Shown here: positions 1-64,000 of the stretch, piece after piece
How positions within the stretch are numbered: the first letter of the stretch is position 1
Layout: every line of letters starts with the position of its first letter
Source: Minisyncoccota bacterium
GTDB taxonomy: Bacteria > Patescibacteriota > Microgenomatia > UBA1400 > UBA12028
Assembly (NCBI GenBank): GCA_016211945.1
Contig: JACRHV010000004.1
Span: 66,649-130,648, forward strand
DNA length: 64,000 nt
Direction of reading: 5' to 3'
The notes under the pieces: generated by a model
Told to the model about the DNA's origin: nothing
Seen by the model: the letters and a program-made list of their open reading frames with translations, nothing else
The model's database searches: none
Program-made: the position numbers and the translations under genes

Positions 1-1643
1 TCGCTTTTTGAAAACATCTTGGCATATGCCAGCATCATCCCTGTTAAAATCCAATACGTTTGGATAACTTTTGATGAGACAAAGACATCGATGTATATTG
101 CATTAATCATGAGGCCAATCGTGATTGCGGTATGCACAACTGCGAAGAGATACAATAACTCATCTTGTGATACCTTTGTTTTTCTCCACAGGTACCCCAT
201 TGCGATAACCATTGTCCCGTAGAACGTGAGAAATCCAAGTAATCCAGTCTCGCCGAGTGTACGAAGGTAGTCATTATCCGTAGACTCTGCCTCTGTAAAC
301 TGGTCACGTGTATATTTTGTTAAGGTTGAGTATCCTGATCCGAGCAATGGATTTCGCAAAAATCCCCGAATTGCAAATGGCCAGAGCGTATCCAATCGGA
401 TTGCAGCAGACAATCCTAAGCGATGTGCATTCTCTGAGAAAACACGCGGAATGATTACCTCGATTTCCTTGCCCTCAGCAGAAGTTGTTGCAATAACCCT
501 ATCCGGAATATTCTCGTACACATCCGGCGGGAGAACCTGATCCACTGGTGCTACGGGTGTAGGAAGCGTGTCTGTTTTGTCTATGACTTTTTCACGCTTT
601 GCTGCCTCTGCTGCAGCTCTCGCAACGTCGTCGATAGAGATAGCATCTTTGGGTTTTTCCACAAGCGGCGTTTGCGCTTTCTCCTTTGCCTCATTCACTG
701 TATTTTGTAATGCGGTATACGCAGAGTTGTCCTTGAATATCTGCCCAAATCTCAAGAGAAGATCACCAAATATCATGAGGAAAACCGCGGTGACGGCATA
801 ACATACTACCATGCGTGTAACACCCCATATGAGCCCCTTCCGGATAGCAAAAAACACAAGAATCGTCGTGAGTGCGGCAAGATACGCGAGAAACGACGAT
901 CGTGAGGAGGTCATCATCATTCCCCACAAACTTATGAGAAATGTACCCGCTAAACCAAGCTTGAGTTTTTTGTTCTTCACAAAAAACAACAGAGCTAAAA
1001 CAAGTGGTAAGCCTATGACGAGAAACGCCGCGTAGTCATAGTGACCTCCAAACGTCGACTGTACACGCGCGTGTTCGGTGAGATAGAGGCGCAATCCTTT
1101 ACTGAACTCTCTGTTCATTGTTGAGTACACGGGCCAATACAGATACTTCTGTCCCAGTCCATAGATTCCAACTAATGCGGTTGATATCACAAAAATTGCA
1201 AGAAACTTTTTTACTTGGCTTTTAGTTTGAATTGCTGAAAAGGTAATAAAGAACAGTGAAAAATACTCTATTCTTCTCCCGTAGTGCAGAAACATCTTTA
1301 AGATGTGTGGTGCACTCATTGGGACTGTTTTTGTCCAATATATAGCGGAGAGAGATGAGAGAAACCCTACTACTAAATACGCCCCAACCACCCATGTTAA
1401 CGGAGTACTCAGTGATATTTTTTTACGGATAACCTGCACAAACCAAAGCACACTCGCCCCTGCGATAAGAAGATCTTCTATTCGAAGTCTCACGATATAC
1501 CCGGGCAATATGTCTGCCAACGGTAACTTCGGATACAGAGGAATGAATGCAAGTAAAAATCCAGCGATTGCAAGAAGTCCCCACCGATCAAGTAATGAAA
1601 ATACGGCGCTGAGCTTCCATGTATGTGTGTTTTCTTGCTTCAT
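1..1643 (-). CDS. O-antigen ligase/polymerase-like (Wzy_C-type) polytopic membrane protein; C-terminus runs off the window start (partial)
   Basis: Not in the ORF track because there is no stop inside the window. Manual minus-strand translation gives MKQENTHTWKLSAVFSLLDRWGLLAIAGFLLAFIPLYPKL..., several hydrophobic helices, then a charged/Pro-rich loop (KEKAQTPLVEKPKDAISIDDVARAAAEAAKREKV...PTPVAPVDQVLPPDV), a Wzy_C-like motif RLDTLWPFAIRGFLRNPLLGSGYS and more helices. The frame was checked at both ends (ATG at 1643..1641; continuous to position 3). The start overlaps the upstream GT2 by about 56 nt, so a later start (e.g. MSAPHILKMF) is possible. Confidence 0.5.
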   Translation of the reverse strand, partial: MKQENTHTWKLSAVFSLLDRWGLLAIAGFLLAFIPLYPKLPLADILPGYIVRLRIEDLLIAGASVLWFVQVIRKKISLSTPLTWVVGAYLVVGFLSSLSAIYWTKTVPMSAPHILKMFLHYGRRIEYFSLFFITFSAIQTKSQVKKFLAIFVISTALVGIYGLGQKYLYWPVYSTMNREFSKGLRLYLTEHARVQSTFGGHYDYAAFLVIGLPLVLALLFFVKNKKLKLGLAGTFLISLWGMMMTSSRSSFLAYLAALTTILVFFAIRKGLIWGVTRMVVCYAVTAVFLMIFGDLLLRFGQIFKDNSAYTALQNTVNEAKEKAQTPLVEKPKDAISIDDVARAAAEAAKREKVIDKTDTLPTPVAPVDQVLPPDVYENIPDRVIATTSAEGKEIEVIIPRVFSENAHRLGLSAAIRLDTLWPFAIRGFLRNPLLGSGYSTLTKYTRDQFTEAESTDNDYLRTLGETGLLGFLTFYGTMVIAMGYLWRKTKVSQDELLYLFAVVHTAITIGLMINAIYIDVFVSSKVIQTYWILTGMMLAYAKMFSKS

Positions 1644-2532
1644 CACGCATCAGTATACCAAAAAGTATGATACGCAACCACGACCCTAGGAAGAGAATGA
1701 CGCGTACACATGGAATTTCCCAGCCTTGTTTATGTTTTTTCCAGTAATAAATCAGATTCTCTATCTCACCAACCTGTGAGTGCATAGGACCCCCAACGCT
1801 TATGTGTTGGTGATGAAGTATCTTTGCAAGCGGAACATAGGCAACAAACTTTTGTTCTTTGTGGATCCGCGCACATATCTCAACGTCCTCAGCATAAAGA
1901 TGTATGTTTTCATCCCATCCACCGATTGCATCAAAAACTTCACGTGGAATCATGAGCGCAGTACCACCTACCCATCCTCCATGCATATGCACTTGAGTAA
2001 AATATGTGATGTTTCTTTGCTGATAGGGAAGGAGAATCGTGTTCACTCCGGGAATATCGTCCAAGAAAAACATCCATAAACAGATGTTCCATAGGGTAGG
2101 GAGTGCTCCTCCTTGTGGTTGAATTGAATGGTCTGTGTTAACCAACTGACCACTCACCGCGCCTCTCGTTGAATTTTTTTCAAGTGCGTCTACCAAGATA
2201 TCTATCGCCCCATCAAATACTTCTGTGTCAGGATTCAGAAAGAAAAGGTGGCGGCCGCTGGCAGATTGTGCACCGAGATTATTTGCCGCGGAAAATCCCA
2301 GAAGTGATCTTGTTTTTACGACTCTCACATCACGAAAAGATGAAACGATAGCCTCGTATGATCCGTCTGTCGACATATTTTCAACGACAATGACTTCACA
2401 TTGTCTTCTGTGCATTGCGGCGTATACTGCCTGTATTGCTTTGAGCGTATATAATTTTGTGTTATATGAAACGATAATAACCGATACATCAATATTATTT
2501 TTTGATTTTTTCTTTACTGTGACGTTCTTCAT
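1588..2532 (-). CDS. family 2 glycosyltransferase (GT-A fold)
   Basis: 314 aa. N-terminal VSVIIVSYNTKLYTLKAIQAVY...VVENMSTDGS is typical of GT2. A 4-nt gap separates it from the upstream gene. Confidence 0.8.
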   Translation of the reverse strand: MKNVTVKKKSKNNIDVSVIIVSYNTKLYTLKAIQAVYAAMHRRQCEVIVVENMSTDGSYEAIVSSFRDVRVVKTRSLLGFSAANNLGAQSASGRHLFFLNPDTEVFDGAIDILVDALEKNSTRGAVSGQLVNTDHSIQPQGGALPTLWNICLWMFFLDDIPGVNTILLPYQQRNITYFTQVHMHGGWVGGTALMIPREVFDAIGGWDENIHLYAEDVEICARIHKEQKFVAYVPLAKILHHQHISVGGPMHSQVGEIENLIYYWKKHKQGWEIPCVRVILFLGSWLRIILFGILMRDEARKHTYMEAQRRIFIT

Positions 2533-2536
2533 AGTG

Positions 2537-3145
2537 TTATTGAAAAAGGCGATGCCTGCCTAATCTATATGCGAGTTCTCGTGTTTTTCTTTTCATGATT
2601 TCCTTTGCTGGAACACCACCAACGATAGAAAGTGGCGCGATATCCTTTGTTACAACGGCGCCGGCGCCAACAACAGCACCTTTACCAATGTGAACACCTG
2701 GAAGAATGATCGCGTTTGGTCCAATGAACACGTAATCATCAATGACTACTTCCGCCTCAATGGGACCAAAATCATCAGCATGTACGTCGTGCTCGCTATT
2801 AAAGATCATCACGCGTGATGCAATGTCCACGTGATTTCCAATGCGTAGTGCGGACCGACCGTCAAGAACCACTTGATCACCAATGATCGTTCCATTGCCA
2901 ATAGAAATATGCGTGGGATCGTACATGCGGCAAAACATATGGAGTGTTGATCCTTTTCCCAAACGGACGCCCGCGGTTTTATAGAAGAAATTTCGGATAG
3001 TATGTGAAGGCACTGACCCCACAACGTACCACAAAAATCCCGTGACAAACTCGAGCAAATAGCTCCATACGCGCACACGCATTTTTCTGATTGCCAGTGA
3101 CCAACCTAGCGGTTTTCCCATTCTGTCGCGAAATGGAGAACTCAT
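2537..3145 (-). CDS. hexapeptide-repeat (left-handed beta-helix) acetyltransferase, WcaF/CysE-like sugar O-acetyltransferase
   Basis: 202 aa with hexapeptide repeats IGNGTIIGDQVVL, IGNHVDIASRVMIF, IGPNAIILPGVHIGKGAVVGAGAVVTKDI. ATGA overlap with the upstream gene. Confidence 0.8.
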   Translation of the reverse strand: MSSPFRDRMGKPLGWSLAIRKMRVRVWSYLLEFVTGFLWYVVGSVPSHTIRNFFYKTAGVRLGKGSTLHMFCRMYDPTHISIGNGTIIGDQVVLDGRSALRIGNHVDIASRVMIFNSEHDVHADDFGPIEAEVVIDDYVFIGPNAIILPGVHIGKGAVVGAGAVVTKDIAPLSIVGGVPAKEIMKRKTRELAYRLGRHRLFQ

Positions 3146-4260
3146 ACTTTACCTCCAACATCATGCAATACTTCTGCAATAATCTTACCAGTTTCTTCCC
3201 AAGAAAACTTCTCTGTTTGTTTTTTCCCTTTTTCCAACAGAAACTCTCTTTGTTGTTTCGTATAGTGGAGCACTTCATTCATTCCGCGCACTATGTCATC
3301 AACTGAATACGGATCAATCAACACGCCTGCGTCTCCTACCACTTCTGGTAAGCTCGCGGTTTCAGACACGATGGGAATGGTGTGTTCTGCCATAGCCTCG
3401 AGGGGAGGAATTCCAAATCCTTCGTATAAACCTGCTAACACTGCCGCTTTTGCTCCTCTGTACAACGCAGATTTTTCACGATCTGAAATAAAGCCAAGAA
3501 GATGTATACGCTTTTTCACCGGACTCTGCTGTACGGCGCGAACAACATCATCAGCCATCCATCCCACTTTGCCGGCAAGAACAAGCGAAAGATCATGATG
3601 CGATTGTGCCACATGTTCAAATGCTTTCACCACACGAACAAGATTTTTTCTTGGCTGTAGAGTTCCGATATACACAAGATACGGCTGTTGGATGTGATGT
3701 TTGTGTAAAACCTCGGAAACAGAGAGGTGTCGTTCTTCGTGTTCAAATCCTGGATACGCGAGGATAACGTCGTCACCTTTTTTGCGGTACACAGTACAGA
3801 CATCTTTTTTTGTGTGGCGAGAGATGACGATAATTTTCTTTGCGTTCTCTACGCAGTGTGCAGTCCAATGCGTAAGTTTCATCATGTCGTTCTTTTTGAA
3901 AAACTCGGGGAATTGGAGAAATGCAAGATCCATCACCGTTACGACGCTTGAAAATGGGCAGTACCAAGGACCGTAATGCCCAAGTGAGTAGAAAACATGA
4001 AATGTTTTACCGCGCAAAGCATGCGCGTACAACGCCGATGGCAATCTCCAAATAGACCAAAAAAGTGAGGGTCTCAAAACGCGATACGTCCATCCTTTTC
4101 TCTCTTTTGGAAGATCTGGCAATGGATCACTGGGGAGGTATATCACCACATCGTCATGGACAAGCAATTTTTCCAGCTCAACAAGGACACGAAACGCATA
4201 CTGGTTACTTCCCACACGATTGGACACATTAGCCTCATATGCATTAATGCCGATGTTCAT
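3142..4260 (-). CDS. family 4 glycosyltransferase (GT-B fold)
   Basis: C-terminal motif LYEGFGIPPLEAMAEHTIPIVSETASLPEVVGDAGVLIDP. The start is placed at MNIGINAYEANVSNRVG (typical GT4 N-terminus). The ORF-track extension to 4353 is probably an alternative-start artefact. Confidence 0.8.
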   Translation of the reverse strand: MNIGINAYEANVSNRVGSNQYAFRVLVELEKLLVHDDVVIYLPSDPLPDLPKERKGWTYRVLRPSLFWSIWRLPSALYAHALRGKTFHVFYSLGHYGPWYCPFSSVVTVMDLAFLQFPEFFKKNDMMKLTHWTAHCVENAKKIIVISRHTKKDVCTVYRKKGDDVILAYPGFEHEERHLSVSEVLHKHHIQQPYLVYIGTLQPRKNLVRVVKAFEHVAQSHHDLSLVLAGKVGWMADDVVRAVQQSPVKKRIHLLGFISDREKSALYRGAKAAVLAGLYEGFGIPPLEAMAEHTIPIVSETASLPEVVGDAGVLIDPYSVDDIVRGMNEVLHYTKQQREFLLEKGKKQTEKFSWEETGKIIAEVLHDVGGKV

Positions 4261-5353
4261 ACGCAATCGCCTTCTTGTATACCTGAATTGTTTTCTTTGC
4301 CACGTCGTCCCAGGAAGAGAATTTTTTAACTTGTTCTTTTCCCCTATCAACATATTTTTTTCTGTGATGCAGCGCTTCTTCTATACCATGCGTGATACTT
4401 TCCACGTGCAGAGGATCAACAAGAACCGCAGCGTCACCGGAAACTTCCGGCATGCTTGAAACATTTGATGTTAGAACGGGAACACCATGATAGAATCCAT
4501 CCAGAATAGGGAGACCAAATCCCTCGTACAACGAGGGATATGCTAAGGCTTCTGCCCCACCATAGAGTGCCGCAAGTTGCTCGTTATTAACCATCCCAAC
4601 AACATGAAGTCCTTGCTCTTGTTTCATCGCGTCCCAACCTTGTGCGCCAGCGAGCACTAGCTCGACTTCCTTTTTTAACGGCCTCCATGCTTGGATCAGC
4701 CGATGGAGATTCTTTCTTGGCTCAAGCGTCCCGATAAAAAAGATATACGGTTTTGTCAAACGAAGTTCCAGTAAGAGGGTGTCGCGTCGAACGGTGGTTA
4801 CTCGAAGCTTTGCCTCTTTTGGTAAGGCTTCATTCACAACATGTACGCGCTCAGGTTCTATCCCCAGGAGTTCGACAACGTCTTTTTTTGTCGACTCAGA
4901 TACCGCGATTATTGCTTTTCCTTCTTTCTTCAGGTGATCCCATGATGCTTTGTTCATCGAGTATACGTACGAATCCGCAGTTTTGGGGTATCGAATCATT
5001 GCAAGATCATGGATTGTGCTTACAAGTGCCGCAGATTTTAAGGGCGGCTGCATCTCCCAAGAGTGAAACACATCAATGTTTCCTAAAAAGGACTCTGGAG
5101 ATACTCTGTGCAGTCTATTCCATACAATATTCATGATTTTTACAGGGTGTGGTAAAAAAACCGCATGTGCTTGAGGTGTTTCATCTGCAACAAATGTGTG
5201 CAATGCGCCACGTTGTCGAAAAGATGAACCAAAAAGGCGGAGGACAACCTCCTCTGACTGCGCGTAAAGACCTCGAACAAGATTTGATGTATAGCGGGAA
5301 ACGCCACGGTTATACGGGAGCGAGCTTATATCAAACCCAACGTGAAGCGGCAT
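4244..5353 (-). CDS. family 4 glycosyltransferase (GT-B fold)
   Basis: 369 aa with MPLHVGFDISSLPYNRGVSRY at the N-terminus and YEGFGLPILDGFYHGVPVLTSNVSSMPEVSGDAAVLVDP near the C-terminus. Confidence 0.8.
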   Translation of the reverse strand: MPLHVGFDISSLPYNRGVSRYTSNLVRGLYAQSEEVVLRLFGSSFRQRGALHTFVADETPQAHAVFLPHPVKIMNIVWNRLHRVSPESFLGNIDVFHSWEMQPPLKSAALVSTIHDLAMIRYPKTADSYVYSMNKASWDHLKKEGKAIIAVSESTKKDVVELLGIEPERVHVVNEALPKEAKLRVTTVRRDTLLLELRLTKPYIFFIGTLEPRKNLHRLIQAWRPLKKEVELVLAGAQGWDAMKQEQGLHVVGMVNNEQLAALYGGAEALAYPSLYEGFGLPILDGFYHGVPVLTSNVSSMPEVSGDAAVLVDPLHVESITHGIEEALHHRKKYVDRGKEQVKKFSSWDDVAKKTIQVYKKAIAYEHRH

Positions 5354-5367
5354 AGGCGTATTGTATC

Positions 5368-6843
5368 CTAGTTCTTCACCGAGATAAACGTATTTCTCTC
5401 ATAAACTCGAATAAATCCCATGTTTTTCGTCTGGATAATCGTTTTCTGTTCAAATCCATGTGTCTCCACCCATGACTCTATGAGGCGTGACGGATCGGTA
5501 AGATCGCGCAGATAGTCAAAGATAAGAATCGTTTTGTATGATTCAAGTGTTGCAAACGACTGTTCCACCTCTTTTTGCACGAGTGGGAATGATGAAAATG
5601 ATGCCGTAGGAAAACGGAAGTTTTTGTTTCGCTCATAGAATATCCAAGGGGCAAAAGGCTCGGTAAATCCAAACACTGCAACGGAAGTACCTGCGGAGTA
5701 TTGTTGGCGAATAGCTGCAATACTCTCTCTCCACCCTTCTCTCTGCATATACGGAAGCGTCCAGTATGACACTAGCCCCATTCCTTGATAAACCAGACAG
5801 AGTGCTATTCCAGCGTACCACACTGATTTCTGTTTTAGGGATAGTATCGCCTGTGTTATGAGGAGAAAAAACGCCGGTAAGACAAAGAGAACCCGTTTTG
5901 GAGCAAGAACAGGAACAATAAACGATACAAGCCAGGCAAGAAACAGAGAAAGACCCAACCACAGAAGAAGTGCACGCGACAAAGTATGTCTTGATTTCCA
6001 CACTGCATAACTAAGAAACACTATCGGAACCCCAAAGTACACAATATCTTGTAACGACATGTCAATCTTCACCCCCCCGCCAAAAAACTTCAGTAGAACG
6101 AGCGGAAGGGCTTTCCACTGTGGCGTACTCACGACAGTCGACCAGCCTGGTAATGTATGTTGCAATGTTCTCCCCACCTTCAGTTGAAAAAGAAAATACG
6201 GAACCCATGGCAAAAATCCCAAGGTAATCCAACCTGCATCCTGGAGGTGTTTTTTTATCTCCTTTGTGTGAGAGAAAACCAGAAAGGCAAATTGAGAGAT
6301 CAAGAGAAAAGGGTAGACATACATTGTGTAAAGTCCAGCAATACTACAAAAAATAAAACATGTTCTATCGCGCATATTCCACATTTTTTTCTGTTGCGCG
6401 CGTAAAAGGACGTACCAAGATATCGTTGCCCAACACGCAGCCAACGCATACGGCCGTAGTTCCTGTGAAAAGTACACATGAAACGCCGATAGTGAGAGAA
6501 GCATCGAAGAAAGAAATCCAATGATGTGTTGGCGTTTTTCTGTCTTGCCAAACAACATACCAATGCGATACGTAAAAAAAATCGTGACAAGTCCCGGTAT
6601 GAGCGAGGCGAGTCGTAGCCACCACTCCTCAACCCCCCATCGCGTGAGGAGATGAACAAGAACATGAAAAAGAGGGGGTTGAAAATCTGCACCAATATCT
6701 AACTGCTGAGAAAGCGGCCGCATACTTTCCAAAACTTGTGCTGCTTCATCAAGCCAAAATGATCCATCGATGAGTGGAACTCTTACGAGTAAAGCGATGA
6801 ATAAGGGAACACTTACACTCAATATCGATTTCATATTTCGCAT
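5368..6843 (-). CDS. polytopic membrane glycosyltransferase, GT-C fold (PMT_2/ArnT-like)
   Basis: At least 10 hydrophobic helices. The first loop FWLDEAAQVLESMRP carries a DE motif like GT39/GT83 enzymes. Start chosen at MRNMKSILSV; the ORF-track N-terminus up to 7095 overlaps the divergent gene at 6878 and is probably not translated. Confidence 0.6.
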   Translation of the reverse strand: MRNMKSILSVSVPLFIALLVRVPLIDGSFWLDEAAQVLESMRPLSQQLDIGADFQPPLFHVLVHLLTRWGVEEWWLRLASLIPGLVTIFFTYRIGMLFGKTEKRQHIIGFLSSMLLSLSAFHVYFSQELRPYALAACWATISWYVLLRAQQKKMWNMRDRTCFIFCSIAGLYTMYVYPFLLISQFAFLVFSHTKEIKKHLQDAGWITLGFLPWVPYFLFQLKVGRTLQHTLPGWSTVVSTPQWKALPLVLLKFFGGGVKIDMSLQDIVYFGVPIVFLSYAVWKSRHTLSRALLLWLGLSLFLAWLVSFIVPVLAPKRVLFVLPAFFLLITQAILSLKQKSVWYAGIALCLVYQGMGLVSYWTLPYMQREGWRESIAAIRQQYSAGTSVAVFGFTEPFAPWIFYERNKNFRFPTASFSSFPLVQKEVEQSFATLESYKTILIFDYLRDLTDPSRLIESWVETHGFEQKTIIQTKNMGFIRVYERNTFISVKN

Positions 6844-6877
6844 ACCCAAAGTGTAGCATGCTATCATAGTTGGGAGT
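6844..6877. promoter_or_regulatory. short divergent intergenic region presumably holding promoters for the ArnT-like GT-C gene (-) and the UXS-like gene (+)
   Basis: 34 bp between divergent starts; GGGAG lies before the + gene. It is inferred from gene arrangement only. Confidence 0.3.
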
Positions 6878-7846
6878 ATGGAATACACAAATAAAACAGT
6901 ACTTGTTACCGGAGCTGCGGGGTTCCTTGGATCGCATGTGTGTGACCGACTTCTTGAACAGGGGGCACATGTGATAGGTGTCGATTCGCTTATCACCGGA
7001 AGGAAAGAAAATCTCTCTTCCGCTCTTTCTCGCACAACCTTTACATTCATCGAGGCAGATTGCTCCACCTCACCAAGATCGTACCTGCCTGCCACGGTAA
7101 AACCGGATGTGATTTTTCACCTCGCCTCGCCCGCAAGTCCACCAATATACCAACAATTTCCCATAGACACATATCTCGTGAATGCGTTAGGCACACACCA
7201 GCTTCTTCAATATCTTCTTACTGAAAATCGCCAAGGACGATTTATTTTCGCCTCAACATCAGAAGTCTACGGCGATCCTAAGGAACGACCGCAAAAGGAG
7301 TCGTATTGGGGAAATGTGAATCCAAACGGTGTTCGATCGTGTTATGACGAGTCCAAACGATTCGGCGAGATGGTTTGTGGTGTACATAGTCGTGATTTTG
7401 GTCTAGATGTTCGGATTGTACGTATTTTTAATACCTACGGTCCGCGCATGAGTCCGCTTGATGGTCGCGTCATCCCAAACTTCATGATGCAGGCGTTGAA
7501 AAACGAGCCACTAACAATTTATGGCGACGGAACTCAAACGCGATCATTCTGCTATGTTGATGATCTTATCCGGGGAATACTTCTTCTTGGATCCACAGAC
7601 TCGGCAAAAAATGAGACCGTGAATATAGGGAGTCCTACAGAAAAAACCGTCAATGAACTTGCCGAAATGATTCAAGCCGCCACACATGCTACCGGTGAGT
7701 ACGTCTATAAACCACTACCCAGTGATGATCCTACCCAACGTCTTCCTGATATTTCAAAAGCTGTATCGCTTTTGGGATGGAAGCTGGAAATAGACTTCCC
7801 AACTGGACTAGAAAAAACACTTGAGTATTTTAAGACGCAAGTTTAA
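6878..7846 (+). CDS. UDP-glucuronate decarboxylase (UDP-xylose synthase)-like NAD-dependent epimerase/dehydratase
   Basis: 322 aa. Rossmann motif VLVTGAAGFLGSHVCDRL, then ASTSEVYGDP and the YDESKR catalytic region typical of the UXS/ArnA C-terminal decarboxylase family. The preceding GGGAG could serve as an RBS. Confidence 0.7.
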   Translation: MEYTNKTVLVTGAAGFLGSHVCDRLLEQGAHVIGVDSLITGRKENLSSALSRTTFTFIEADCSTSPRSYLPATVKPDVIFHLASPASPPIYQQFPIDTYLVNALGTHQLLQYLLTENRQGRFIFASTSEVYGDPKERPQKESYWGNVNPNGVRSCYDESKRFGEMVCGVHSRDFGLDVRIVRIFNTYGPRMSPLDGRVIPNFMMQALKNEPLTIYGDGTQTRSFCYVDDLIRGILLLGSTDSAKNETVNIGSPTEKTVNELAEMIQAATHATGEYVYKPLPSDDPTQRLPDISKAVSLLGWKLEIDFPTGLEKTLEYFKTQV

Positions 7847-8097: not shown

Positions 8098-8132
8098 TCC
8101 ACATACTATATCGCACAAACCTTACAATTAGC

Positions 8133-8345: not shown

Positions 8346-8407
8346 ATAGAGTTATCCTAGTGTGGTAAGAACACACCGTCAAGCGGATCTTTTGTAATCA
8401 AAAAAGA

Positions 8408-11550: not shown

Positions 11551-11563
11551 ATCTGTCGTTATA

Positions 11564-13132: not shown

Positions 13133-13146
13133 CCTTTTATCCTCTG

Positions 13147-51194: not shown

Positions 51195-51204
51195 CTCTTT
51201 TTTC

Positions 51205-55560: not shown

Positions 55561-55591
55561 AGACTCCTTCCCGTTTTCTCCATTGTACAGG

Positions 55592-57649
55592 TTATTTTCT
55601 CCCATGCAGACGGTCTTGTACAACAAGATAGAGATTCCACCATAATTCCCGCGGGTCTCGCAGACATGAAAGCGGAGATTTTTTGCAGTTTGTGACAAAT
55701 CGAATAGAAGGAAAATGCGTGGTTTCGTTGTCTATGATGAGATCTACCGCTGTACTTCCCGCCTGCTTCCCATCAATATCAATAAAATACTCTCCCTTCG
55801 ATGTTTCGGGTTGCTGAATCGTTATCTGTCCACAAATCTCTTTTTTGCATCTGATCATTGGATTCTGTTGCGCCATTGTGGATCGTCTTTGATCGTCTCT
55901 AAGATGTATTACGATACGAATAGGGTTTCTCCCCATCATTGCATAGGCCGTATCAAGTCTTATCGTGGACTGTTGCATGCTGATCGGATTTCTTTGTTCT
56001 TCTGGAGCATATGCCTGACGGTAGGTAACATCTTGTCCTCCATGGATGTTCTTTATCTCAGGAAAATACGTGACTCCCCGTTGTGTTTTTCGCTCACGCA
56101 GTATCTTTGAACCATCCTTCATCATCTCGAGAAGATCTCCATTAAGCACAGACAGTTTGGGTAGTTCGGGACCTTCAAACTCAAAATAGTCATTCGTAAA
56201 AAATATGTTCACTTCATTATTGTTCTCTGTTTCGTACGACAACGCGATCGAGTTCGAATCTCGCACACTTTTGATCTTGCCATTTTTCTGCGCCATGGGA
56301 AACACCAAAGCCGCGGTGTCTTGATAAAGATCATTCAATATCGCGTTTTTTTCTGTTCGTACCGGCGTTTTCTTCGTCATTTTCCACCATATCTTATCCC
56401 ACAGTTTTGTTGGGAGATATGCGGGTTGTTCAGTATTTCTAAATCGAGACCCATCCAAGACAAACGGCGTGATCCAGTACGCATTTGGGGTACTCACCGG
56501 CATCGTGGCGTAGGGATCTTCCAGTGCTGAACTATAGATACGAAGATCGGTGAGTTTTACCTGATGTCCTGTTCGAATCAGTCGCGCTCGATATGATGGT
56601 GTCGATATCCAAAATGCCTGATGTGTTACTCCATTACTTTCTGTCTCTCCTTCAGAAAATTGTATAAAGGGTTGTGCTAGTAATCGATGTTTTACTTCCT
56701 TTGCGTATGTTGTGATCGTGGGCTGCCAAACATCCGAATGCTCTTTCAGAATTTTTTCGATATATGCTAATTGACGTATGTACTCTCGCTGGACATCCGA
56801 TGGCATTGTGTTTTCCAAACCAATGACCGTGGCACCGTTCCCCTTCACTAGTGATTGGTCGACTAGATGGACAAAGTATTCAAAACCACGAGAAGCAAGT
56901 GTGTAGTCATTCGGTTGGGAGGTGGTACTGCTCGTTGTATCTCCATAGTTCAGTACTGGATCAGGAATGGTTTGTCGAATCATCACGAGTGGAAGTGTGT
57001 CTTTCCCCTGTGATGGAACAAGCGGCCATCGGGTACTTGGAAGGTATGGACCCTGGAAAGGTCCACCATACAAGGTATAACTATCGGTGCCCCATTGCTC
57101 GCGCGTCAGTTCGTGCACCTCTACTCCATACTGACTGGAAAGGTAGTTGAGCGACCACGCGTCGATCATCCATGCAACCGTTATCTTTGGAAAAACGGCA
57201 AACGTCTTCTTGTATTGAGTCATGTATGTATCAATAAGAGCTTTTCGATCCTTCACGGAATATCCCAATAAATACGCATTTTTTGCTTTATACCATCGAT
57301 CTTCTGGGCCTTCATAACGAACGTGTGCATCGACCGCTAAACTCGGAATAATCTCTAAAAATGCCGCTGCTTCTATTTCCTGAGATGGCAACTGCTGGTG
57401 TATCAGTGAAACCATTGCCTCGTTTTGCAACGCATCGTATCGAAACGCAAATGCGGCTTTCAAATGATGCTGGGTTATCGAGTCCACCTGCAATCGTAGA
57501 GCGTCAACAGATCCGGGATCACAGCACGATGCACCTCGAACCTGATTGATGATGAGAAGTGCGGATGAGATTTCTTGTGATTGTGCGCGCACATATTGCG
57601 GAAAAAATGAAAAGAAAAAGAGTATGAAAAAAAGAAAAAACCGAGTCAT
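55592..57649 (-). CDS. secreted or envelope protein of unknown function (685 aa) with an N-terminal signal peptide
   Basis: MTRFFLFFILFFFSFFPQYVRA|QSQE gives a Sec signal with an AXA-like cleavage site. The remainder is hydrophilic with an S/T-rich patch DTTSSTTSQPND and no recognised catalytic motif. Confidence 0.5.
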   Translation of the reverse strand: MTRFFLFFILFFFSFFPQYVRAQSQEISSALLIINQVRGASCCDPGSVDALRLQVDSITQHHLKAAFAFRYDALQNEAMVSLIHQQLPSQEIEAAAFLEIIPSLAVDAHVRYEGPEDRWYKAKNAYLLGYSVKDRKALIDTYMTQYKKTFAVFPKITVAWMIDAWSLNYLSSQYGVEVHELTREQWGTDSYTLYGGPFQGPYLPSTRWPLVPSQGKDTLPLVMIRQTIPDPVLNYGDTTSSTTSQPNDYTLASRGFEYFVHLVDQSLVKGNGATVIGLENTMPSDVQREYIRQLAYIEKILKEHSDVWQPTITTYAKEVKHRLLAQPFIQFSEGETESNGVTHQAFWISTPSYRARLIRTGHQVKLTDLRIYSSALEDPYATMPVSTPNAYWITPFVLDGSRFRNTEQPAYLPTKLWDKIWWKMTKKTPVRTEKNAILNDLYQDTAALVFPMAQKNGKIKSVRDSNSIALSYETENNNEVNIFFTNDYFEFEGPELPKLSVLNGDLLEMMKDGSKILRERKTQRGVTYFPEIKNIHGGQDVTYRQAYAPEEQRNPISMQQSTIRLDTAYAMMGRNPIRIVIHLRDDQRRSTMAQQNPMIRCKKEICGQITIQQPETSKGEYFIDIDGKQAGSTAVDLIIDNETTHFPSIRFVTNCKKSPLSCLRDPRELWWNLYLVVQDRLHGRK

Positions 57650-58602
57650 CGTCCTCTCTTTGCGTGAAACTCTTGACGCTTCCCATATCTATGGATGAGA
57701 ACATCAAAGGCGGAAGAGCGCAAAGTCACATCCCTCGATCCCAACAGTGAGAAAAGTTCACGAAGTAATGCGAGTTTTGTTCGAAAAGATGCGTAACGCA
57801 AACCATACATAAACCGATTTCTCGTCTGATAATACGCATGCATCCGTGATCCACTTCCTCCTGTTGATCCCGCATTTTTATGCCATATGACTGCTGACGG
57901 AACATACCATACCGATCCCTTTTTCCTTCTCACACGTTCACAATACTCCAAATCTTCAAGATACATAAAATAGGAGGTATTCCACGATCCCACGACCTCC
58001 CAGGTCTTCTTTGAGACAACCATACAACAACCTGTCGCAAAATCAGTTTCTTCTTCATCATCACATTGTCCTCGGTCTATCTCGTCAACATTACGATGCC
58101 AACCAAACACATTTTTCTTGTCGATATTTCCCCCCGCATACCAAATCACCCTACCTATTTCATCTTTCTTATAGGTTTCTTTATGAAATTCATATCCTTT
58201 CTCAAAATAGATTTTGGGAGAAGCCACACAGATCTCATTTTGGTGTTGAATACTCCACTTTCCAATATTTTGAATAGAGTTTTCCTCAACGCGCGTGTCA
58301 TTGTTCAAAAAAATAACTCCATCGGCGTGAAGCGACTCAAACGCATACTTGGCACCAAGATTATTCGCCCCAGAAAATCCAAGATTTTTTGACTCGATAC
58401 TATGGACATTAGGATATGCTTTTTTTATTTCATTGCTTTGATTTTCTTTGCGATCATCGTCTTCTTCATTTACGATAACAACATCGTATGTAAAGTTTGC
58501 TGTTTTTGACTGGAAAATCGAGTGTAAACACTCGAGTGTATCGTGAAGACCATAGTAATTGAGGATAATGACGGCGAGATGATATTTTATATTGGAATTC
58601 AT
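57646..58602 (-). CDS. family 2 glycosyltransferase
   Basis: LAVIILNYYGLHDTLECLHSIFQ...VVIVNEEDDD...FLNNDTRVEE. Confidence 0.8.
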   Translation of the reverse strand: MNSNIKYHLAVIILNYYGLHDTLECLHSIFQSKTANFTYDVVIVNEEDDDRKENQSNEIKKAYPNVHSIESKNLGFSGANNLGAKYAFESLHADGVIFLNNDTRVEENSIQNIGKWSIQHQNEICVASPKIYFEKGYEFHKETYKKDEIGRVIWYAGGNIDKKNVFGWHRNVDEIDRGQCDDEEETDFATGCCMVVSKKTWEVVGSWNTSYFMYLEDLEYCERVRRKKGSVWYVPSAVIWHKNAGSTGGSGSRMHAYYQTRNRFMYGLRYASFRTKLALLRELFSLLGSRDVTLRSSAFDVLIHRYGKRQEFHAKRGR

Positions 58603-59420
58603 ATTGCCTTTATTTCCTGAGTAATGACTGTAATCATTTCCTTGTAACTCATATCTTTTATATTTAATTCTTCAAAAAATCTTGGTTTTTCTATACTAAG
58701 TGGAATGACGAGATTATCATTTTTTGGTTGTACTTCTTTTTTAAAGTTGCTTAATATATCTTTTGCTAACTTGTATTGTGTTACAACCTCTTTTATAAAA
58801 ATTGGAATAATTTTCCCCGTGATGTTTCTTCTCACAATACGTTCAACAACCTGAGAAATATGACCAATATATGTTGGCTGAAACTCCCATGATGTATCCC
58901 AATATGTTGGTTTATCTTGAGACATTGCCTTTAAAATCCTATTAAATGGCCTATCATTTGTCACATTAGGACTCATTCCAACGATATAAGAAGGTCGAAT
59001 AATTGTCCATTTCCCATGAGATTTTTGAATAATTTCTTCCGAATTCTTTTTTGTTTTACCATATATATTCCTGGGATTCAGAACTGCCAATGATGAAATA
59101 TATATCAAATGTGATTGATGTTTCATTGCCACGTCCGCAATATATGATGTGGCTTTTTCATTAAGATTCTTTGCCTCTTCTGGGTGTGATTCGCACCAAC
59201 TTCCACTTCCATTATTCGCTGTATGGACAATATAATCAGGTTTTAATTCTTTAACAGTTTTTTCCACCGCAATTGGATCTGTAATATCTAATTGAATAGA
59301 ATTTTCCCAAAATGGTGAGCTGTGATATTGTGGCACAATATCAAGTGTCATATGCAAATCTTGATAAATACGGGCACCCAGATATCCATTAGAACCCAAT
59401 AACAATATTTTGCTCCGCAT
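58599..59420 (-). CDS. NAD(P)-dependent sugar-nucleotide reductase/epimerase, RmlD (dTDP-4-dehydrorhamnose reductase)-like
   Basis: 273 aa. ILLLGSNGYLGARIYQDL...PDYIVHTANNG...LIYISSLAVLNPRNIYGKTKKNSEEI follows the RmlD substrate-binding-domain pattern. Confidence 0.55.
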   Translation of the reverse strand: MRSKILLLGSNGYLGARIYQDLHMTLDIVPQYHSSPFWENSIQLDITDPIAVEKTVKELKPDYIVHTANNGSGSWCESHPEEAKNLNEKATSYIADVAMKHQSHLIYISSLAVLNPRNIYGKTKKNSEEIIQKSHGKWTIIRPSYIVGMSPNVTNDRPFNRILKAMSQDKPTYWDTSWEFQPTYIGHISQVVERIVRRNITGKIIPIFIKEVVTQYKLAKDILSNFKKEVQPKNDNLVIPLSIEKPRFFEELNIKDMSYKEMITVITQEIKAI

Positions 59421-59425: not shown

Positions 59426-59638
59426 CTATTCCTTCACAAATTCAAATCGAGGGACTTTTTTTCCATCCACCTCAATGTGTTCTATAAACATTTTTACTGG
59501 TCTTATCCATAACTGACCGTTTTCATTTGGATAAAGGCAATAATATGTCACGTATTCTTCAAGAGTTTCACTGTGCTTTGCAACTTCGATGACTTGATAA
59601 TATTTCCCTTTGTAGTGTCTATACGTTCCACATTTCAT
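59426..59638 (-). CDS. DUF1653-family small protein
   Basis: 70 aa. YRHYKGKYYQVIEVAKHSETLEEYVTYYCLYPNENGQLWIRPVKMF matches the DUF1653 consensus (Y-x-H-Y-K-G...Y...H-S-E-T-x-E...V-x-Y...W-x-R-P-x-x-M-F). Confidence 0.7.
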   Translation of the reverse strand: MKCGTYRHYKGKYYQVIEVAKHSETLEEYVTYYCLYPNENGQLWIRPVKMFIEHIEVDGKKVPRFEFVKE

Positions 59639-59678: not shown

Positions 59679-61166
59679 ATGCTTTCAGATATGGGAATTC
59701 TGCTTGCAATCTACGCGGTTCTTCTTCGACTCATTCCTATTTTAAATAATCGCTTCTCATTCATGTATGACAACGCGAAAGACTCATTGGTTATGCTGGA
59801 GATGTTCCAATATCATAAGCCAGCACTCCTTGGACCAACGACAAGTTTGGAAGGATTATTCTACGGGCCAGCGTGGTATTACATCGCATTGCCTTTTAAC
59901 ATTCTTGGTCAATTTCACCCATTTGCGAGTGTTGCGATGGTGTTATTCTTGGTCGCACTGAGTACCTTCGTATTGACTCGAGTTTTTGGAAAAACCACAG
60001 GATTTCTTTTTGCCGTATCAATTGGCGCCATCGGAACACAAAATACTGCATGGACACCATACATGACTACTTTCCCCATGATTGCTGTATTTATACTTCT
60101 TTCCTCTATGAAACATCAAAAAAAGATTTCTTTGTGGCTATCCGCACTTCTTGGTCTTTTTGTTTCACTCATGTTCCATTTTCAAGTCGCATATGCCGTT
60201 GTTTTTCTTCCGCTCGTTTTTCTCGTTCTCATCAAAGAAAAAATTCCATTCGCATGGAAACACTGGTGCGTCGCGTTCTTCGCGTTCCTTCTCCCTATGC
60301 TCCCACAAGCTTTCTTTGAGACACGACACGACTTTCTTCAAACACGTTCAGTGATCCGTTACATTCATACATATTGTTCTGAGTCACAAAAAATACAACC
60401 CAATTCCTCTGGCATATTGCGAGTAAAAGAAGTTACTGAGTATATGTTTGATAACGCAAAACTCAGTGTATTGTCTTTTGACCAAGCATGGATTGCCACG
60501 ATCGTTCTTCTTTTTATTGGTATTAGTATAGTAAAAAGAAAAAAGAATTTTCTTGTCCGCACCTCACTCACTTTTATTGTCGGAAGCTTTCTTTTCTATC
60601 TCGTTCTCCCCATCAAACCTTACTATCTCACCGCTCTTATTCCTGTGTGGATCATACTTTTTTCACAATGTTTACAAACAGTATCCAAAAATTCTCGATC
60701 ATTCATTCTTGTGAGTTATGCAGTACTTAGTGTCGTTCATTTGCAACAGGGTATAGATCGAGCAAAACAATACGAAAAAACGGATGTCTTTTTTCTTGGT
60801 CCAAAAATGCAGGCGATTCAAACCGCATATGAGATGAGTGAAGGAAAACCATTTGCTTCATACCAGTATGTTCCAGAAATTTACGACTACACCTATCAAT
60901 ACCTTTATCTCGTGGGTCAGCAAAACGGGAAACAACTTCCGACAGAGTTTAGTTATGCGGCCGGAGAATACACCTATATTCCACAAAAACATGTACAACG
61001 CTCAACAACCCGGCCAACCTTCACCATACTTATTGTTGAAAAACCAAAAACCAACTGGCTGTACGATCAATGGAAAGATCGTGTAACAAAAAATCTCGAA
61101 ATTATTGAAACTCGAAAAATTAATGACGCGCTTACGGTGTACAAAACTATCCCCAAAAAATTGTAA
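59679..61166 (+). CDS. polytopic membrane protein, putative GT-C-like (uncharacterised family; paralog of 8408..9892 and 61167..62699)
   Basis: 495 aa. Shared loop motif FSFMYDNAKDSLVMLEMFQYHKPALLGPTTSLEGLFYGPAWYYIALPF. Confidence 0.5.
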   Translation: MLSDMGILLAIYAVLLRLIPILNNRFSFMYDNAKDSLVMLEMFQYHKPALLGPTTSLEGLFYGPAWYYIALPFNILGQFHPFASVAMVLFLVALSTFVLTRVFGKTTGFLFAVSIGAIGTQNTAWTPYMTTFPMIAVFILLSSMKHQKKISLWLSALLGLFVSLMFHFQVAYAVVFLPLVFLVLIKEKIPFAWKHWCVAFFAFLLPMLPQAFFETRHDFLQTRSVIRYIHTYCSESQKIQPNSSGILRVKEVTEYMFDNAKLSVLSFDQAWIATIVLLFIGISIVKRKKNFLVRTSLTFIVGSFLFYLVLPIKPYYLTALIPVWIILFSQCLQTVSKNSRSFILVSYAVLSVVHLQQGIDRAKQYEKTDVFFLGPKMQAIQTAYEMSEGKPFASYQYVPEIYDYTYQYLYLVGQQNGKQLPTEFSYAAGEYTYIPQKHVQRSTTRPTFTILIVEKPKTNWLYDQWKDRVTKNLEIIETRKINDALTVYKTIPKKL

Positions 61167-62699
61167 CTATTCTTCTGTATCCTTTGGTTTTCGAACCTGT
61201 ATTCGATGATTGTTCATAACAAACTCTTTCACCAGTATTGTATGGTTGTCCTGATACTCACGAAAATTCTTGGTAAACTCAGGACCGATATCAAAATTCG
61301 GTTCATATATTGTGATATGCGTTTGGAAAGGCCCATCTGATCTTGGTAATATTTCATCACCGATATACCCATCAGCTGCAAACCCATACCACTGTGGAAT
61401 GACAACATCACGTTTACTCTTGTACCAAGAAAAATAATAACTCCAGGCAGATCGAATTCCATACGGCGTTTCAAATATGCTCACGGTAAATGGAGTATTC
61501 TGTGGAACCTGTGCATATACCGCATCAAGCACCTGCTTTCTCTGCCGCAGCAATACTCCATCCTGCACCTGCACATACGCATGATTGTCACGAGCTTGAA
61601 CATATATCATTCGTAGTTGGCTTCCTATCGCGAGAAAAATAATGATTGTGGCAATAACACTACGCATGTTCTTTGTATATGTTGTGAGAACATATGTAAA
61701 AAGAATCATCATAAGTATTCCCATTCCTATGAAGAAAAACTTTTCTGGAGGACGACCTGTAAAGAAAAGTACAACAGACCATAATAATGGGCCTAATAAA
61801 AAAAACACTTGAGAAAGATTTGATGTTCTCTTGGAATACCATACCGCACCACAAATTATACATATTAGGAATAGTCCAGCAAAAAGAGTTGGGAATCCCC
61901 AAACATTTTTTTGAAATAATGTGACCATCATTTCCCCATATTTCACTAACGGAAAAGTCGTCTCTGTTTGCACCGGAGGTTTTGTGTGCTGTACGCGCGA
62001 AAGCACATATCCGATAAGTCCACGAATAACCTGTCCGCGAAATTTCACTTCTGCGAGAAGAAGCGGGAGTACGCCTAGTATTGCTCCACCGTGAAATATT
62101 ATCCAATCACGAATATTTGATTTTTTTATCGCAAAAAAAGAATAGACAAAAAAGAGTAAAAATCCCATCACAAGTTCGGACTGAATAATTAATCCAAAAA
62201 GAATTCCAGCAATAAAGATATTTCTCACAAGTCTTTGTTGATTCCATAGGAAATAGAGAAACCATGGAAAAAGCGGAATAACAAGAACGGGATTGCTTAA
62301 CCATTTCGCATATGAAACAATTTCATACGAAAACAAGAAAAGTATCGATGATATGAACGCAACCTGGTGAGAAAAAAGACTACGGGATAAAGCATATACA
62401 CCGCTCACTGCGCATATATTCAAAAAAACAAAAAAGAGAAGCGGAAGCCAAGGATCCCATTTTGATAGAGCATATAATGGAGCAATGATGTAGTAAAAAA
62501 GTGGGCCATGGTGAACACCTGGTATATCGCTCACCGGACCGAGTAGTTTTAGATTTTTATGTAATACCATCTCGCGAACAACAAGCGCATCGCGCGCTTG
62601 ATCGTATGGAAAAATACTTTCGTAAATCCCTGGATAAATTCGGAGAAAAATTCCAAAAAAGATACACAATCCCAGTAAGAACTTTTGCCAAAGACTCAT
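61167..62699 (-). CDS. polytopic membrane protein, putative GT-C-like (uncharacterised family; paralog)
   Basis: 510 aa. FPYDQARDALVVREMVLHKNLKLLGPVSDIPGVHHGPLFYYIIAPLY. Its stop codon directly abuts the stop of its convergent paralog. Confidence 0.5.
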   Translation of the reverse strand: MSLWQKFLLGLCIFFGIFLRIYPGIYESIFPYDQARDALVVREMVLHKNLKLLGPVSDIPGVHHGPLFYYIIAPLYALSKWDPWLPLLFFVFLNICAVSGVYALSRSLFSHQVAFISSILFLFSYEIVSYAKWLSNPVLVIPLFPWFLYFLWNQQRLVRNIFIAGILFGLIIQSELVMGFLLFFVYSFFAIKKSNIRDWIIFHGGAILGVLPLLLAEVKFRGQVIRGLIGYVLSRVQHTKPPVQTETTFPLVKYGEMMVTLFQKNVWGFPTLFAGLFLICIICGAVWYSKRTSNLSQVFFLLGPLLWSVVLFFTGRPPEKFFFIGMGILMMILFTYVLTTYTKNMRSVIATIIIFLAIGSQLRMIYVQARDNHAYVQVQDGVLLRQRKQVLDAVYAQVPQNTPFTVSIFETPYGIRSAWSYYFSWYKSKRDVVIPQWYGFAADGYIGDEILPRSDGPFQTHITIYEPNFDIGPEFTKNFREYQDNHTILVKEFVMNNHRIQVRKPKDTEE

Positions 62700-62702: not shown

Positions 62703-63257
62703 TTACTTTACTGCCTTACAAAAAGTATTAAACCCAAACTCAAACATCTGAACATTCACTTTTTGAAATCCAACATTTTTCATGACCTTCCGCAGTCTTT
62801 CTTCCGTAAAATAATTTTCGTGCTGTTCAATCATTTCTTTTCGCACAAGACCTACCTTCGCAAAAAGATCTAGGAGCGGTTTACTTGAGGGAGAAGGAAC
62901 CGTGATCAGTAACATTCCACCTTTTTTTAGAATGCGAAAACATTCACGCACAATATCTTTTGGATGTTTCATATGTTCCAATACCGCCATCATCGTAACA
63001 ATATCAGCAGATTGAGAAGGAAAATCTATTTTTTTTTGGAGATCCTGACAAAGTATTCGAACGTTTCCATATGAGTAACGACTTACAACGCAATCAATCC
63101 CTATACAGGCCTTCATGTCATCTTTTATTCGATCAATAAAAACTTGTGGCTGGTCACAGCCAATGTCCACAAGAACACTATCTTTTTTTAGATACGGCAA
63201 TATTTTTCGAATACGGAGCTCCTGGAATAGAGGTTCAAACAATGTAATTTTTTTCAT
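62703..63257 (-). CDS. class I SAM-dependent methyltransferase
   Basis: VLVDIGCDQPQVF (motif I)...ILKKGGMLLITVP. Confidence 0.7.
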   Translation of the reverse strand: MKKITLFEPLFQELRIRKILPYLKKDSVLVDIGCDQPQVFIDRIKDDMKACIGIDCVVSRYSYGNVRILCQDLQKKIDFPSQSADIVTMMAVLEHMKHPKDIVRECFRILKKGGMLLITVPSPSSKPLLDLFAKVGLVRKEMIEQHENYFTEERLRKVMKNVGFQKVNVQMFEFGFNTFCKAVK

Positions 63258-63258
63258 A

Positions 63259-63978
63259 TCAAATTGTGGAGAGGCGGTATTTTAGAATTGCACCTACCGC
63301 TAGTATCCAATCAATTCCTGTGATTTTCTTTCCTTCTGCATATGTTCGACCAATGTATGTTATCGGTATTTCAAGAATTTTGACACCTCGCAATAATAAT
63401 TTGCATGTAATTTCCGGCTCTATACGAAAATCATTTTCGGACAATTTTAAATCCTTCATTAGTTGTGTTGGCAAAATTTTATAACATGTCTCCATATCAG
63501 AAAGAATCGTGTCATACAAAACATTAATGAATAGATTTAGGAGTTGGTTGCCAACATAATGCCAATAATACATATTCGTTCGTGCTCCAAAAAAGCGTGA
63601 TCCATATACAACTTCAACTCGTCCTAGACGTATTGGTTCCAATAATTTTGGTATTTCTTTTGGATCATATTCCAAATCTGCATCTTGAATAAGAATATAA
63701 TTCCCTTTTGCCATGCGCAATGCAGTCTGAATTGCTTTTCCTTTTCCTTGATTTTCTGTGTGTGAATATACATGGAGTCGTTTGACCTTTTTCTTTTTTG
63801 CCAAAACTGCCGTTTTGTCTTTTGATGCGTCATCTACAACAATTACCTCAAATACATCTTTTTGTGCAAGTACTTGAGTTAATACTTGTTGAATTGTTTT
63901 TTCTTCGTTGTATGCCGGGATAATAACAGTAAGTCGGATAGAATCCTTCATATTTTCAATTTCCTTCGAACTTTCCAA
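63259..63978 (-). CDS. polyprenol-phosphate glycosyltransferase, GT2 (DPM1/ArnC-like)
   Basis: LTVIIPAYNEEKTIQQVLTQVL...VIVVDDASKDKT...NQGKGKAIQTAL...LIQDADLEYDP. 239 aa. Confidence 0.7.
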   Translation of the reverse strand: MESSKEIENMKDSIRLTVIIPAYNEEKTIQQVLTQVLAQKDVFEVIVVDDASKDKTAVLAKKKKVKRLHVYSHTENQGKGKAIQTALRMAKGNYILIQDADLEYDPKEIPKLLEPIRLGRVEVVYGSRFFGARTNMYYWHYVGNQLLNLFINVLYDTILSDMETCYKILPTQLMKDLKLSENDFRIEPEITCKLLLRGVKILEIPITYIGRTYAEGKKITGIDWILAVGAILKYRLSTI

Positions 63979-64000
63979 TAGATCTTCTCCACAAATGAAG

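Follow-up and report, generated by a model that had tools for sequence, protein, structure and literature searches.

The window analysed here, a 64-kb stretch of DNA taken in its entirety from a Candidatus Pacebacteria metagenome-assembled genome of an uncultured, ultrasmall bacterium (candidate phyla radiation, CPR, or Patescibacteria), is likely the core of an envelope-glycan biosynthesis supercluster of at least 84 kb. It is rich in polytopic glycosyltransferases (GT) of the GT-C type, 14 of which, named B to O from left to right (with the protein P encoded between M and N), make up 24% of its 59 genes and 34% of its bases. To our knowledge, no ordinary polysaccharide locus has a comparable GT-C share. 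These proteins are accompanied by cytoplasmic GT2 and GT4 enzymes, candidate synthases of polyprenyl-phosphate sugars, a flippase and export genes, and two modules of their gene order recur in dozens of CPR genomes, which makes it probable that the product belongs to the core envelope of the lineage rather than being a strain-specific antigen. Chemistry of this type is already known; what is new is the density and clustering of GT-Cs in a reduced genome, a conserved tandem array (J-K-L-M), a fused double GT-C (H-G) and an orphan family (I).

Gene content and GT-C families of the window

A mechanical list of 54 open reading frames (ORFs) of at least 150 aa, completed with small ORFs and checked ORF by ORF, gave 59 genes covering 98.8% of the window, with starts corrected according to the gene calls on identical public contigs (L001, L098 and L099; Logan, run SRR12113407). 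Most genes lie on the minus strand, their ends overlapping or nearly abutting, with one co-directional run between about 63,978 and 30,368. According to the Pfam and NCBIfam scans, these ORFs include 12 GT2, eight GT4/GT1 (including a weak one at 25059-26351), three DegT aminotransferases, five short-chain dehydrogenases/reductases (SDRs) of the epimerase/dehydratase/reductase type, two hexapeptide acyltransferases, one GFO/IDH/MocA oxidoreductase, one AsnB-type amidotransferase, one or two methyltransferases, one Wzx flippase, one ABC-2 permease with its ATPase, one Wzy_C protein (A) and one DUF2304 protein. A preliminary description of the window, made from the sequence alone, had counted about 14 GT-C, about 11 GT2, eight GT4, three DegT and five SDRs, which agrees with this inventory except for one additional GT2. 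It had also stated that nearly every ORF relates to glycans and that the GT-C density far exceeds that of the usual O-antigen or capsule locus, in line with the shares given above and with the only six genes devoid of such an assignment (P, orf168, orf147, DUF1653 and two small ORFs). No tRNA or Rfam family was detected in the window.

Seventeen proteins are polytopic according to hydropathy. Wzx, the ABC-2 permease and the Wzy_C protein constitute three of them, and the 14 others can be assigned to GT-C by family or predicted fold, representing at least seven GT-C sequence families. The Pfam gathering score is exceeded by C, H, K, L and O (PMT_2, PMT or PTPS_related). J, K, L and M are mutual paralogues (25-30% identity, blastp E 1e-31 to 1e-66; J and M against K and L, 1e-31 to 1e-53). 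A further group of paralogues comprises C, N and O, to which N is linked by blastp (E 1e-12) and hhalign (100%). For B, D, E and H, profiles were built from homologues in related loci and compared by hhalign: B matched the M family (99.6%; blastp 1e-6 with K), D, for which 18 homologues were retrieved from metagenome loci, matched O (97.4%) and C (96.7%), E matched J (94.7%) and H matched C (92%). Taken alone, F stays under the Pfam threshold; PMT_2 is matched by 31 of 37 F homologues, and a deeper F profile matched O, C, L and E (hhalign 96%). G has 2071 homologues, and about 15 of the top 120 carry PF04188 (PIG-V/Gpi18 mannosyltransferase). PDB sequence and profile searches with D, E and I returned no match, and NCBIfam nothing informative for the unassigned polytopic proteins.

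Family I is assigned to GT-C from its predicted fold alone. Only 28 homologues were recovered from 5.8 billion clustered proteins, and neither Pfam, NCBIfam nor profile-profile comparison gave a match; its charged motifs are very strongly conserved (YTWDxxAFWxPK, FNHPEYP, REHxxGEYxGTAD, HAFREEFR and TPEEQAxFI). The AF2 models of I and E are helical bundles, and crude hydropathy predicts 7-12 transmembrane (TM) segments in each of the 14 proteins.

The conserved residues are those expected of such enzymes. In a scan that took in every family except I, an acidic residue is kept in at least 90% of the members in the loop after TM1 in 12 families. These residues are arranged as acidic pairs in the J-M array (J D37-E38, K D40-E41, L E59-E60, M D51-E52) and in B (D116-E117), and others are found in C (D37/D41), N (D31/D35), O (D33/D37), D (E50/D54), E (D24/D27), G (D67) and H (D51). 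The invariant Asp of F (D88) and that of I (D126) are instead located after TM3, in a loop facing the same side. Lys and Arg are abundant at the N-terminus of H, L and M and absent from their loop 1, which places the acidic loop of these three proteins outside. The two outcomes that the preliminary description had held to speak against it, namely matches to transporter families and a lack of Asp/Glu motifs in the loops, were not observed: the searches led to GT-C families or folds and the acidic residues are kept in outward-facing loops. The transporter or permease reading was rejected for these 14 of the 17 polytopic proteins.

Three of the GT-Cs display additional features. G and H overlap by 20 nt in the window; four further CPR genomes have them fused in one ORF of about 920-950 aa (L002 10058-12805, L003 4740-7034, L006 9935-12772 and L017 3293-6103), which would form a polypeptide of two GT-Cs. 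E carries an ectodomain (residues ~454-580) modelled as a beta-sandwich, of which the nearest solved folds are the carbohydrate-binding modules (CBM) CBM36, CBM35, CBM6 and CBM22, and BcsB; this predicted CBM-like domain points to a polysaccharide acceptor.

Three short GT2s are candidates for the synthesis of the donors. The best NCBIfam matches of the GT2 at 36098-36757 are AglJ, PpgS and the Dol-P-hexose transferase, and its best PDB relatives are the Dol-P-Man synthase 5mlz (E 5e-11) and ArnC. The GT2 at 43120-43893 matched AglJ (123 bits), the Dol-P-hexose transferase and ArnC in NCBIfam, and 5mlz (E 1e-17) and ArnC (E 6e-14) in PDB, and the one at 63259-63978 matched AglJ (128 bits) and the Dol-P-hexose transferase in NCBIfam. 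The first of them is directly followed by the DUF2304 gene and located, with it, about 2.5 kb downstream of G/H on the same strand; the second adjoins I, and the third is contiguous with a methyltransferase gene and O. DUF2304 is the family of GacJ of Streptococcus pyogenes, which complexes with GacI, and of its mycobacterial homologue Rv3632, which stimulates PpgS (bioRxiv 10.1101/180810). This presence of synthase candidates beside GT-C genes, together with the positive-inside pattern of H, L and M, indirectly suggests that the GT-Cs may use polyprenyl-phosphate sugars on the non-cytoplasmic face of the membrane.

Extent, conservation and variable parts of the block

The glycan block extends at least 10 kb past each end of the window, which brings its total to 84 kb or more, with no fewer than 18 GT-C genes. 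The left flank (L098) encodes a PMT_2 GT-C, three GT4, a GT2, a ManC-like nucleotidyltransferase and a phosphoglycosyltransferase (Bac_transf, 205 bits). On the right (L099), the J-M family has a fifth member (E 1e-88) and H a second paralogue (E 4e-40); this flank also encodes another PMT_2-like protein, a GT2, a second flippase (Polysacc_synt_3/MurJ-like) and two polytopic proteins without assignment, X4 and X5 (5678-7195 and 7213-8424 of L099; 505 and 403 aa). The latter two have no Pfam family and no match to the GT-C profiles built here, and were left out of the GT-C count. Since complete Microgenomates genomes range from 0.80 to 1.09 Mb (PMC7143001), the block would represent roughly 8-10% of a genome of this size.

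The arrangement is conserved in related genomes. Relatives of H, the best of which is 47% identical, were found in 76 loci (one genome per species scanned), all from CPR-type genomes and mostly titled Patescibacteria, Microgenomates, Pacebacteria or Woesebacteria. About 30 of them are titled "uncultured Pseudomonadales" (including L004, L007-L009 and L012), probably by mistake given their low GC and CPR-like gene content. These H-anchored loci harbour 5-10 polytopic ORFs per 21 kb; the J-M family is present in 66 of the 76, usually in 2-5 copies (range 0-5), and 27 of these loci have four. The gene immediately after H is G in 40 of 73 cases, and in the nearest relatives I is flanked by the J-M array and H. 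A second scan of metagenomes anchored on D retrieved 20 loci arranged as E ... D - G or C - B - five soluble genes - A, as are positions 1-16,600 of the window. Two modules are thereby delineated, JKLM (2-5 copies) .. I .. H-G and E .. D-G/C-B .. A, and they are old, since their order is kept among genomes whose proteins are only 30-50% identical. The inclusion of the product among the core envelope components of the lineage, proposed above as probable, is based on this recurrence.

Other parts of the window differ in composition. A low-GC3 (GC content at third codon positions) island spans 18.1-35.0 kb, with values of 0.21-0.30 versus 0.38-0.48 elsewhere in the window, and a second low-GC3 patch occupies the right end (58.6-64 kb). 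The island carries Wzx, the amino-sugar genes, several GT4/GT2 and F, its only GT-C. This central 17 kb is probably a variable, exchanged or fast-evolving part of an otherwise conserved supercluster.

Proposed assembly route, alternatives and known counterparts

The gene content, folds, motifs, adjacency and conservation described above suggest the following route, whose donors, acceptors, step order and product are proposals. Cytoplasmic GT4 and GT2 enzymes would build glycans on polyprenyl-diphosphate, the chain being presumably started by the Bac_transf protein encoded left of the window. The intermediates would cross to the outer face through the Wzx-type flippases and the ABC-2 exporter, and the Wzy_C protein A could then polymerise or ligate them. 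In parallel, at least three short GT2s, homologous to Dol-P-Man synthase, PpgS and ArnC, would load single sugars onto polyprenyl phosphate, one of them working with the DUF2304 (GacJ-type) helper. After flipping, each of the 14 GT-Cs would use one of these lipid-linked sugars to extend or branch the glycan that grows outside the membrane. The fold, motifs and gene adjacency underlie this GT-C step; the reaction and the acceptor are proposed, and we can only infer whether the GT-Cs polymerise, branch or merely decorate, as well as what they act upon.

Several observations weigh against this reading of the window as the core of an envelope-glycan supercluster. All NCBIfam matches, those of the short GT2s among them, score under their curated cut-offs and do not single out particular sugars. 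No GtrA-type flippase was found among the small ORFs of the window, nor was an LCP-type ligase or any other enzyme for anchoring. The conservation was observed only through homologues of H and D, a sample biased towards genomes that bear the system. Finally, the DE motif of J-M is common to protein O-mannosyltransferases, and some GT-Cs may therefore act on proteins.

This last point leads to the alternative that the GT-Cs, above all J-K-L-M, mainly glycosylate surface proteins such as S-layer proteins, pilins or adhesins, and not a polysaccharide, after the model of PMT-type O-mannosyltransferases or of the pilin arabinosyltransferase TfpW. Besides the DE motif, the abundance of CPR surface proteins is in favour of it, as is the PMT match of L, the only one to pass the PMT Pfam threshold (43.4 bits versus 22.7; J scores 20.5 and the others match PMT_2 only). 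The motif is however not specific to PMT, and the Pfam search of the 14 GT-Cs returned neither a PMT_4TMC nor a MIR domain. The sole PDB match of the J-M profile, a marginal one, is ArnT (5ezm, E 0.003). Moreover, the setting among Wzx, Wzy_C, ABC-2, phosphoglycosyltransferase and many GT4/GT2 genes is typical of polysaccharide assembly, and the CBM-like ectodomain of E also argues against a predominant action on proteins, which we regard as unlikely.

It is quite improbable that, rather than forming one assembly line, the GT-Cs are swappable decoration modules of the Gtr serotype-conversion or lactococcal Csd type that diversify one simple polymer for phage evasion or host matching: the GT2/GT-C pair is the unit of known decoration systems (PMC8035078), the low-GC3 island and patch suggest exchangeable parts and the JKLM copy number varies from 0 to 5 between loci, but the order of both modules is kept at 30-50% protein identity, H and G are fused in four genomes, the paralogues are old (25-30% identity) with their own conserved residues, and only three clear donor synthases serve the 14 GT-Cs of the window.

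The supercluster proposed here shares components with several known systems. In the multi-component scheme of Gram-positive bacteria, a GT-A makes a C55-P-sugar, a GtrA/Wzx-type flippase transfers it across the membrane and a GT-C adds the sugar to a wall polymer (PMC8035078). Like GacI/GacJ/GacK/GacL of S. pyogenes, GtlA/GtcA/GtlB of Listeria, CsbB/YfhO of Bacillus and CsdA-F of Lactococcus, the locus combines a short GT2 akin to the polyprenyl-P-sugar synthases with DUF2304, a Wzx-family flippase and PMT_2-type GT-Cs, all in the company of an ABC-2 exporter and cytoplasmic GT4/GT2. These systems contain one GT-C per module and 1-3 per locus, whereas the block has 14 in 64 kb, belonging to at least seven families, with conserved tandem arrays, a fused pair, no GtrA found and a CPR host.

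The preliminary description had considered mycobacterial arabinan and lipoarabinomannan (LAM) assembly as the closest parallel. This stands for the scale and the logic, but the Gram-positive GacI/J/K/L-type systems are mechanistically as close. The resemblance to the mycobacterial and corynebacterial set for arabinogalactan, lipomannan and LAM (Emb, AftA-D, PimE, Mpt; PpgS-Rv3632-Rv3779) is otherwise limited to the fold level: no Emb/Aft family and no UbiA- or DprE-type decaprenyl-P-arabinose gene was detected among the ORFs scanned with Pfam and NCBIfam, and the genes of the block are clustered and not scattered, in another phylum and in a genome about five times smaller. The GT-C count of the block is above that known from Mycobacterium tuberculosis. 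With the lumenal GT-Cs of eukaryotes and archaea (ALG3/9/12/6, PIG-V/PIG-M, PMT1/2/4, AglB/STT3), identity is only 7-14%, the STT3/OST Pfam family was not hit, and the carrier would presumably be a bacterial polyprenol. No match to ArnT was obtained in NCBIfam among ten polytopic proteins scanned (a set without C, J-M and O). The block does not belong to the Emb/Aft, ArnT or canonical PMT families, since the searches made for the domains that define them gave no such domain.

Parts of two export routes are found in the block. The Wzx/Wzy pathway is represented by Bac_transf in the flank, Polysacc_synt and Wzy_C. Of the ABC-dependent wall-polymer pathway (WTA or rhamnan type), the permease and ATPase are present; LCP, Tag and RmlA-C had no match in the window, and the RmlD-like SDR scores under the NCBIfam cut-off. 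The low-GC centre and the amino-sugar enzymes (DegT, GFO, hexapeptide acyltransferase, AsnB) also recall Wzx/Wzy O-antigen and capsule loci. The block differs from these by its far greater GT-C density, and a Wzz co-polymerase or chain-length regulator was not found. CPR cells are reported to be without an outer membrane (PMC7906910), and the host would thus probably have no lipopolysaccharide to carry an O-antigen.

CPR bacteria account for a large share of bacterial diversity, live on other cells and have a surface chemistry that is hardly known. The extracytoplasmic glycan machine that the preliminary description had put forward is supported by the GT-C families, the loop residues, the conserved neighbourhoods and the adjacent synthase candidates. 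It had also been presented as undescribed for this lineage, and full-text literature searches found no description of GT-C clusters in CPR/Patescibacteria, the only related remark concerning the "29 genes of glycosyl transferases" of one Microgenomates genome. The devotion of at least 84 kb of a genome of ~0.8-1.1 Mb (PMC7143001) to glycan assembly implies an elaborate surface glycan indispensable to the lifestyle of these organisms. At least one unclassified family would be added to the GT-C inventory, and the J-M array, family I, the H-G pair and E with its CBM-like ectodomain represent concrete targets for study. More tentatively, it is conceivable that Microgenomatia/Pacebacteria build a lineage-defining envelope heteropolysaccharide or lipoglycan largely outside the membrane with a line of about 18 or more GT-Cs, including the new family I and the two-module H-G enzyme. 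If true, it would be a bacterial counterpart of the ALG pathway of the endoplasmic reticulum lumen or of mycobacterial arabinan assembly, taking up ~8-10% of a genome of ~1 Mb, and the glycan would probably play a central part in what hosts and phages encounter at the surface of these episymbionts.

Features of the window and minor observations

The features of the window are listed from left to right in the table below.

Table. Genes of the 64-kb window with their coordinates and the basis of their assignment
Feature	Position	Strand	Basis and remarks
A, Wzy_C/O-antigen-ligase-like polytopic protein	1-1643	-	564 aa in full length, ~51 nt beyond left window end; Pfam Wzy_C 41 bits; weak NCBIfam ligase/polymerase matches; whole gene in L098
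GT2	1588-2532	-	Pfam Glycos_transf_2
Hexapeptide-repeat acyltransferase	2537-3145	-	Pfam Hexapep
Two GT4	3142-4260, 4244-5353	-	Pfam Glycos_transf_1/Glyco_transf_4; L098 gene calls
B, GT-C	5368-6867	-	DE motif D116-E117 (long-ORF numbering); hhalign, blastp
SDR epimerase/dehydratase	6878-7846	+	Pfam Epimerase 191 bits
Small genes, role unassigned: two ORFs (91, 70 aa), DUF1653, orf168	7843-8345, 59426-59638, 45094-45600	-	
C, GT-C (PMT_2 type)	8408-9892	-	Pfam PMT_2 30 bits (gathering score 26.1)
D, GT-C without Pfam family	9889-11550	-	E50/D54; 147-aa C-terminal ectodomain; hhalign
GT4; two-domain GT2	11564-13207; 13147-14559	-	Pfam; L001 gene calls
E, GT-C with predicted CBM-like beta-sandwich ectodomain	14614-16623	+	D24/D27 after TM1; 100% identical to HZA34_01260
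ABC-2 permease; ABC ATPase (polysaccharide-type exporter)	16630-17412; 17396-18154	+	Pfam ABC2_membrane, ABC_tran
Nucleotide-sugar modification set: methyltransferase-like, SDR, AsnB amidotransferase, GT2, DegT, hexapeptide acyltransferase, GFO/IDH/MocA oxidoreductase, weak GT4	18156-26351		Pfam; in low-GC3 island (GC3 0.21-0.30)
Wzx-type flippase	26605-28002	+	Pfam Polysacc_synt 87 bits, Polysacc_synt_3
DegT aminotransferase, GT4, GT2	27995-31183		Pfam
F, GT-C (PMT_2 type)	31196-32965	-	Pfam PMT_2 18.9 bits, E 0.0018; invariant D88, D136
GT4, GDP-fucose-synthase-like SDR, GT2	32965-35788	-	Pfam; NCBIfam
DUF2304 small membrane protein (GacJ/Rv3632 family)	35757-36128	-	Pfam DUF2304 60.6 bits
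Short GT2, candidate polyprenyl-phosphate-sugar synthase	36098-36757	-	Pairs with DUF2304
DegT; orf147; SDR	36770-37906; 37911-38354; 38336-39235	-	Pfam, NCBIfam; orf147 without Pfam match
G, GT-C of PIG-V/Gpi18 (GT76-like) type	39279-40481	-	Invariant D67; 100% identical to HZA34_01380
H, GT-C (Pfam PTPS_related)	40462-42135	-	PF10131 44.6 bits; invariant D51 after TM1
GT4	42078-43133	-	Pfam
Short GT2, candidate polyprenyl-phosphate-sugar synthase	43120-43893	-	Adjoins I; NCBIfam, PDB
I, orphan family of predicted GT-C fold	43799-45097	-	Predicted fold
orf168 (N-terminal TM helices), then GT2	45094-46444	-	
J; K; L; M, tandem GT-C (PMT_2/PMT type)	46463-47962; 47959-49584; 49560-51239; 51205-52725	-	
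GT2, GT4, GT2	52722-55605	-	Pfam; L099 gene calls
P, 685 aa, secreted or anchored	55592-57649	-	No Pfam or NCBIfam match
GT2 and RmlD-like SDR	57646-59420	-	Pfam; NCBIfam
N, GT-C, paralogue of C and O	59679-61166	+	D31/D35; blastp, hhalign
O, GT-C (PMT_2)	61167-62699	-	Pfam PMT_2 29 bits; D33/D37
S-adenosylmethionine-dependent methyltransferase	62703-63257	-	Pfam Methyltransf_23 69 bits
Short GT2, candidate polyprenyl-phosphate-sugar synthase	63259-63978	-	Pfam GT2 125 bits; NCBIfam AglJ 128 bits

P was rejected as a GT-C, not being polytopic. Its N-terminal domain of about 300 aa is conserved, and in two other loci (L089 4024-5886 and L090 12637-14499) a domain of this type is followed by an eight-helix membrane domain, in place of which P itself has a long soluble tail. 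Orf147, a protein of 147 aa, is encoded between an SDR and a DegT gene, at a site where a sugar ketoisomerase might be expected; its identification as an FdtA/WxcM-type cupin was dropped after Pfam gave no match. The GC skew of the window is negative in 31 of 32 bins of 2 kb whatever the strand of the genes, with a cumulative value of -2.3, and a strong G/C strand disparity has been described in a complete Microgenomates genome (PMC7143001).

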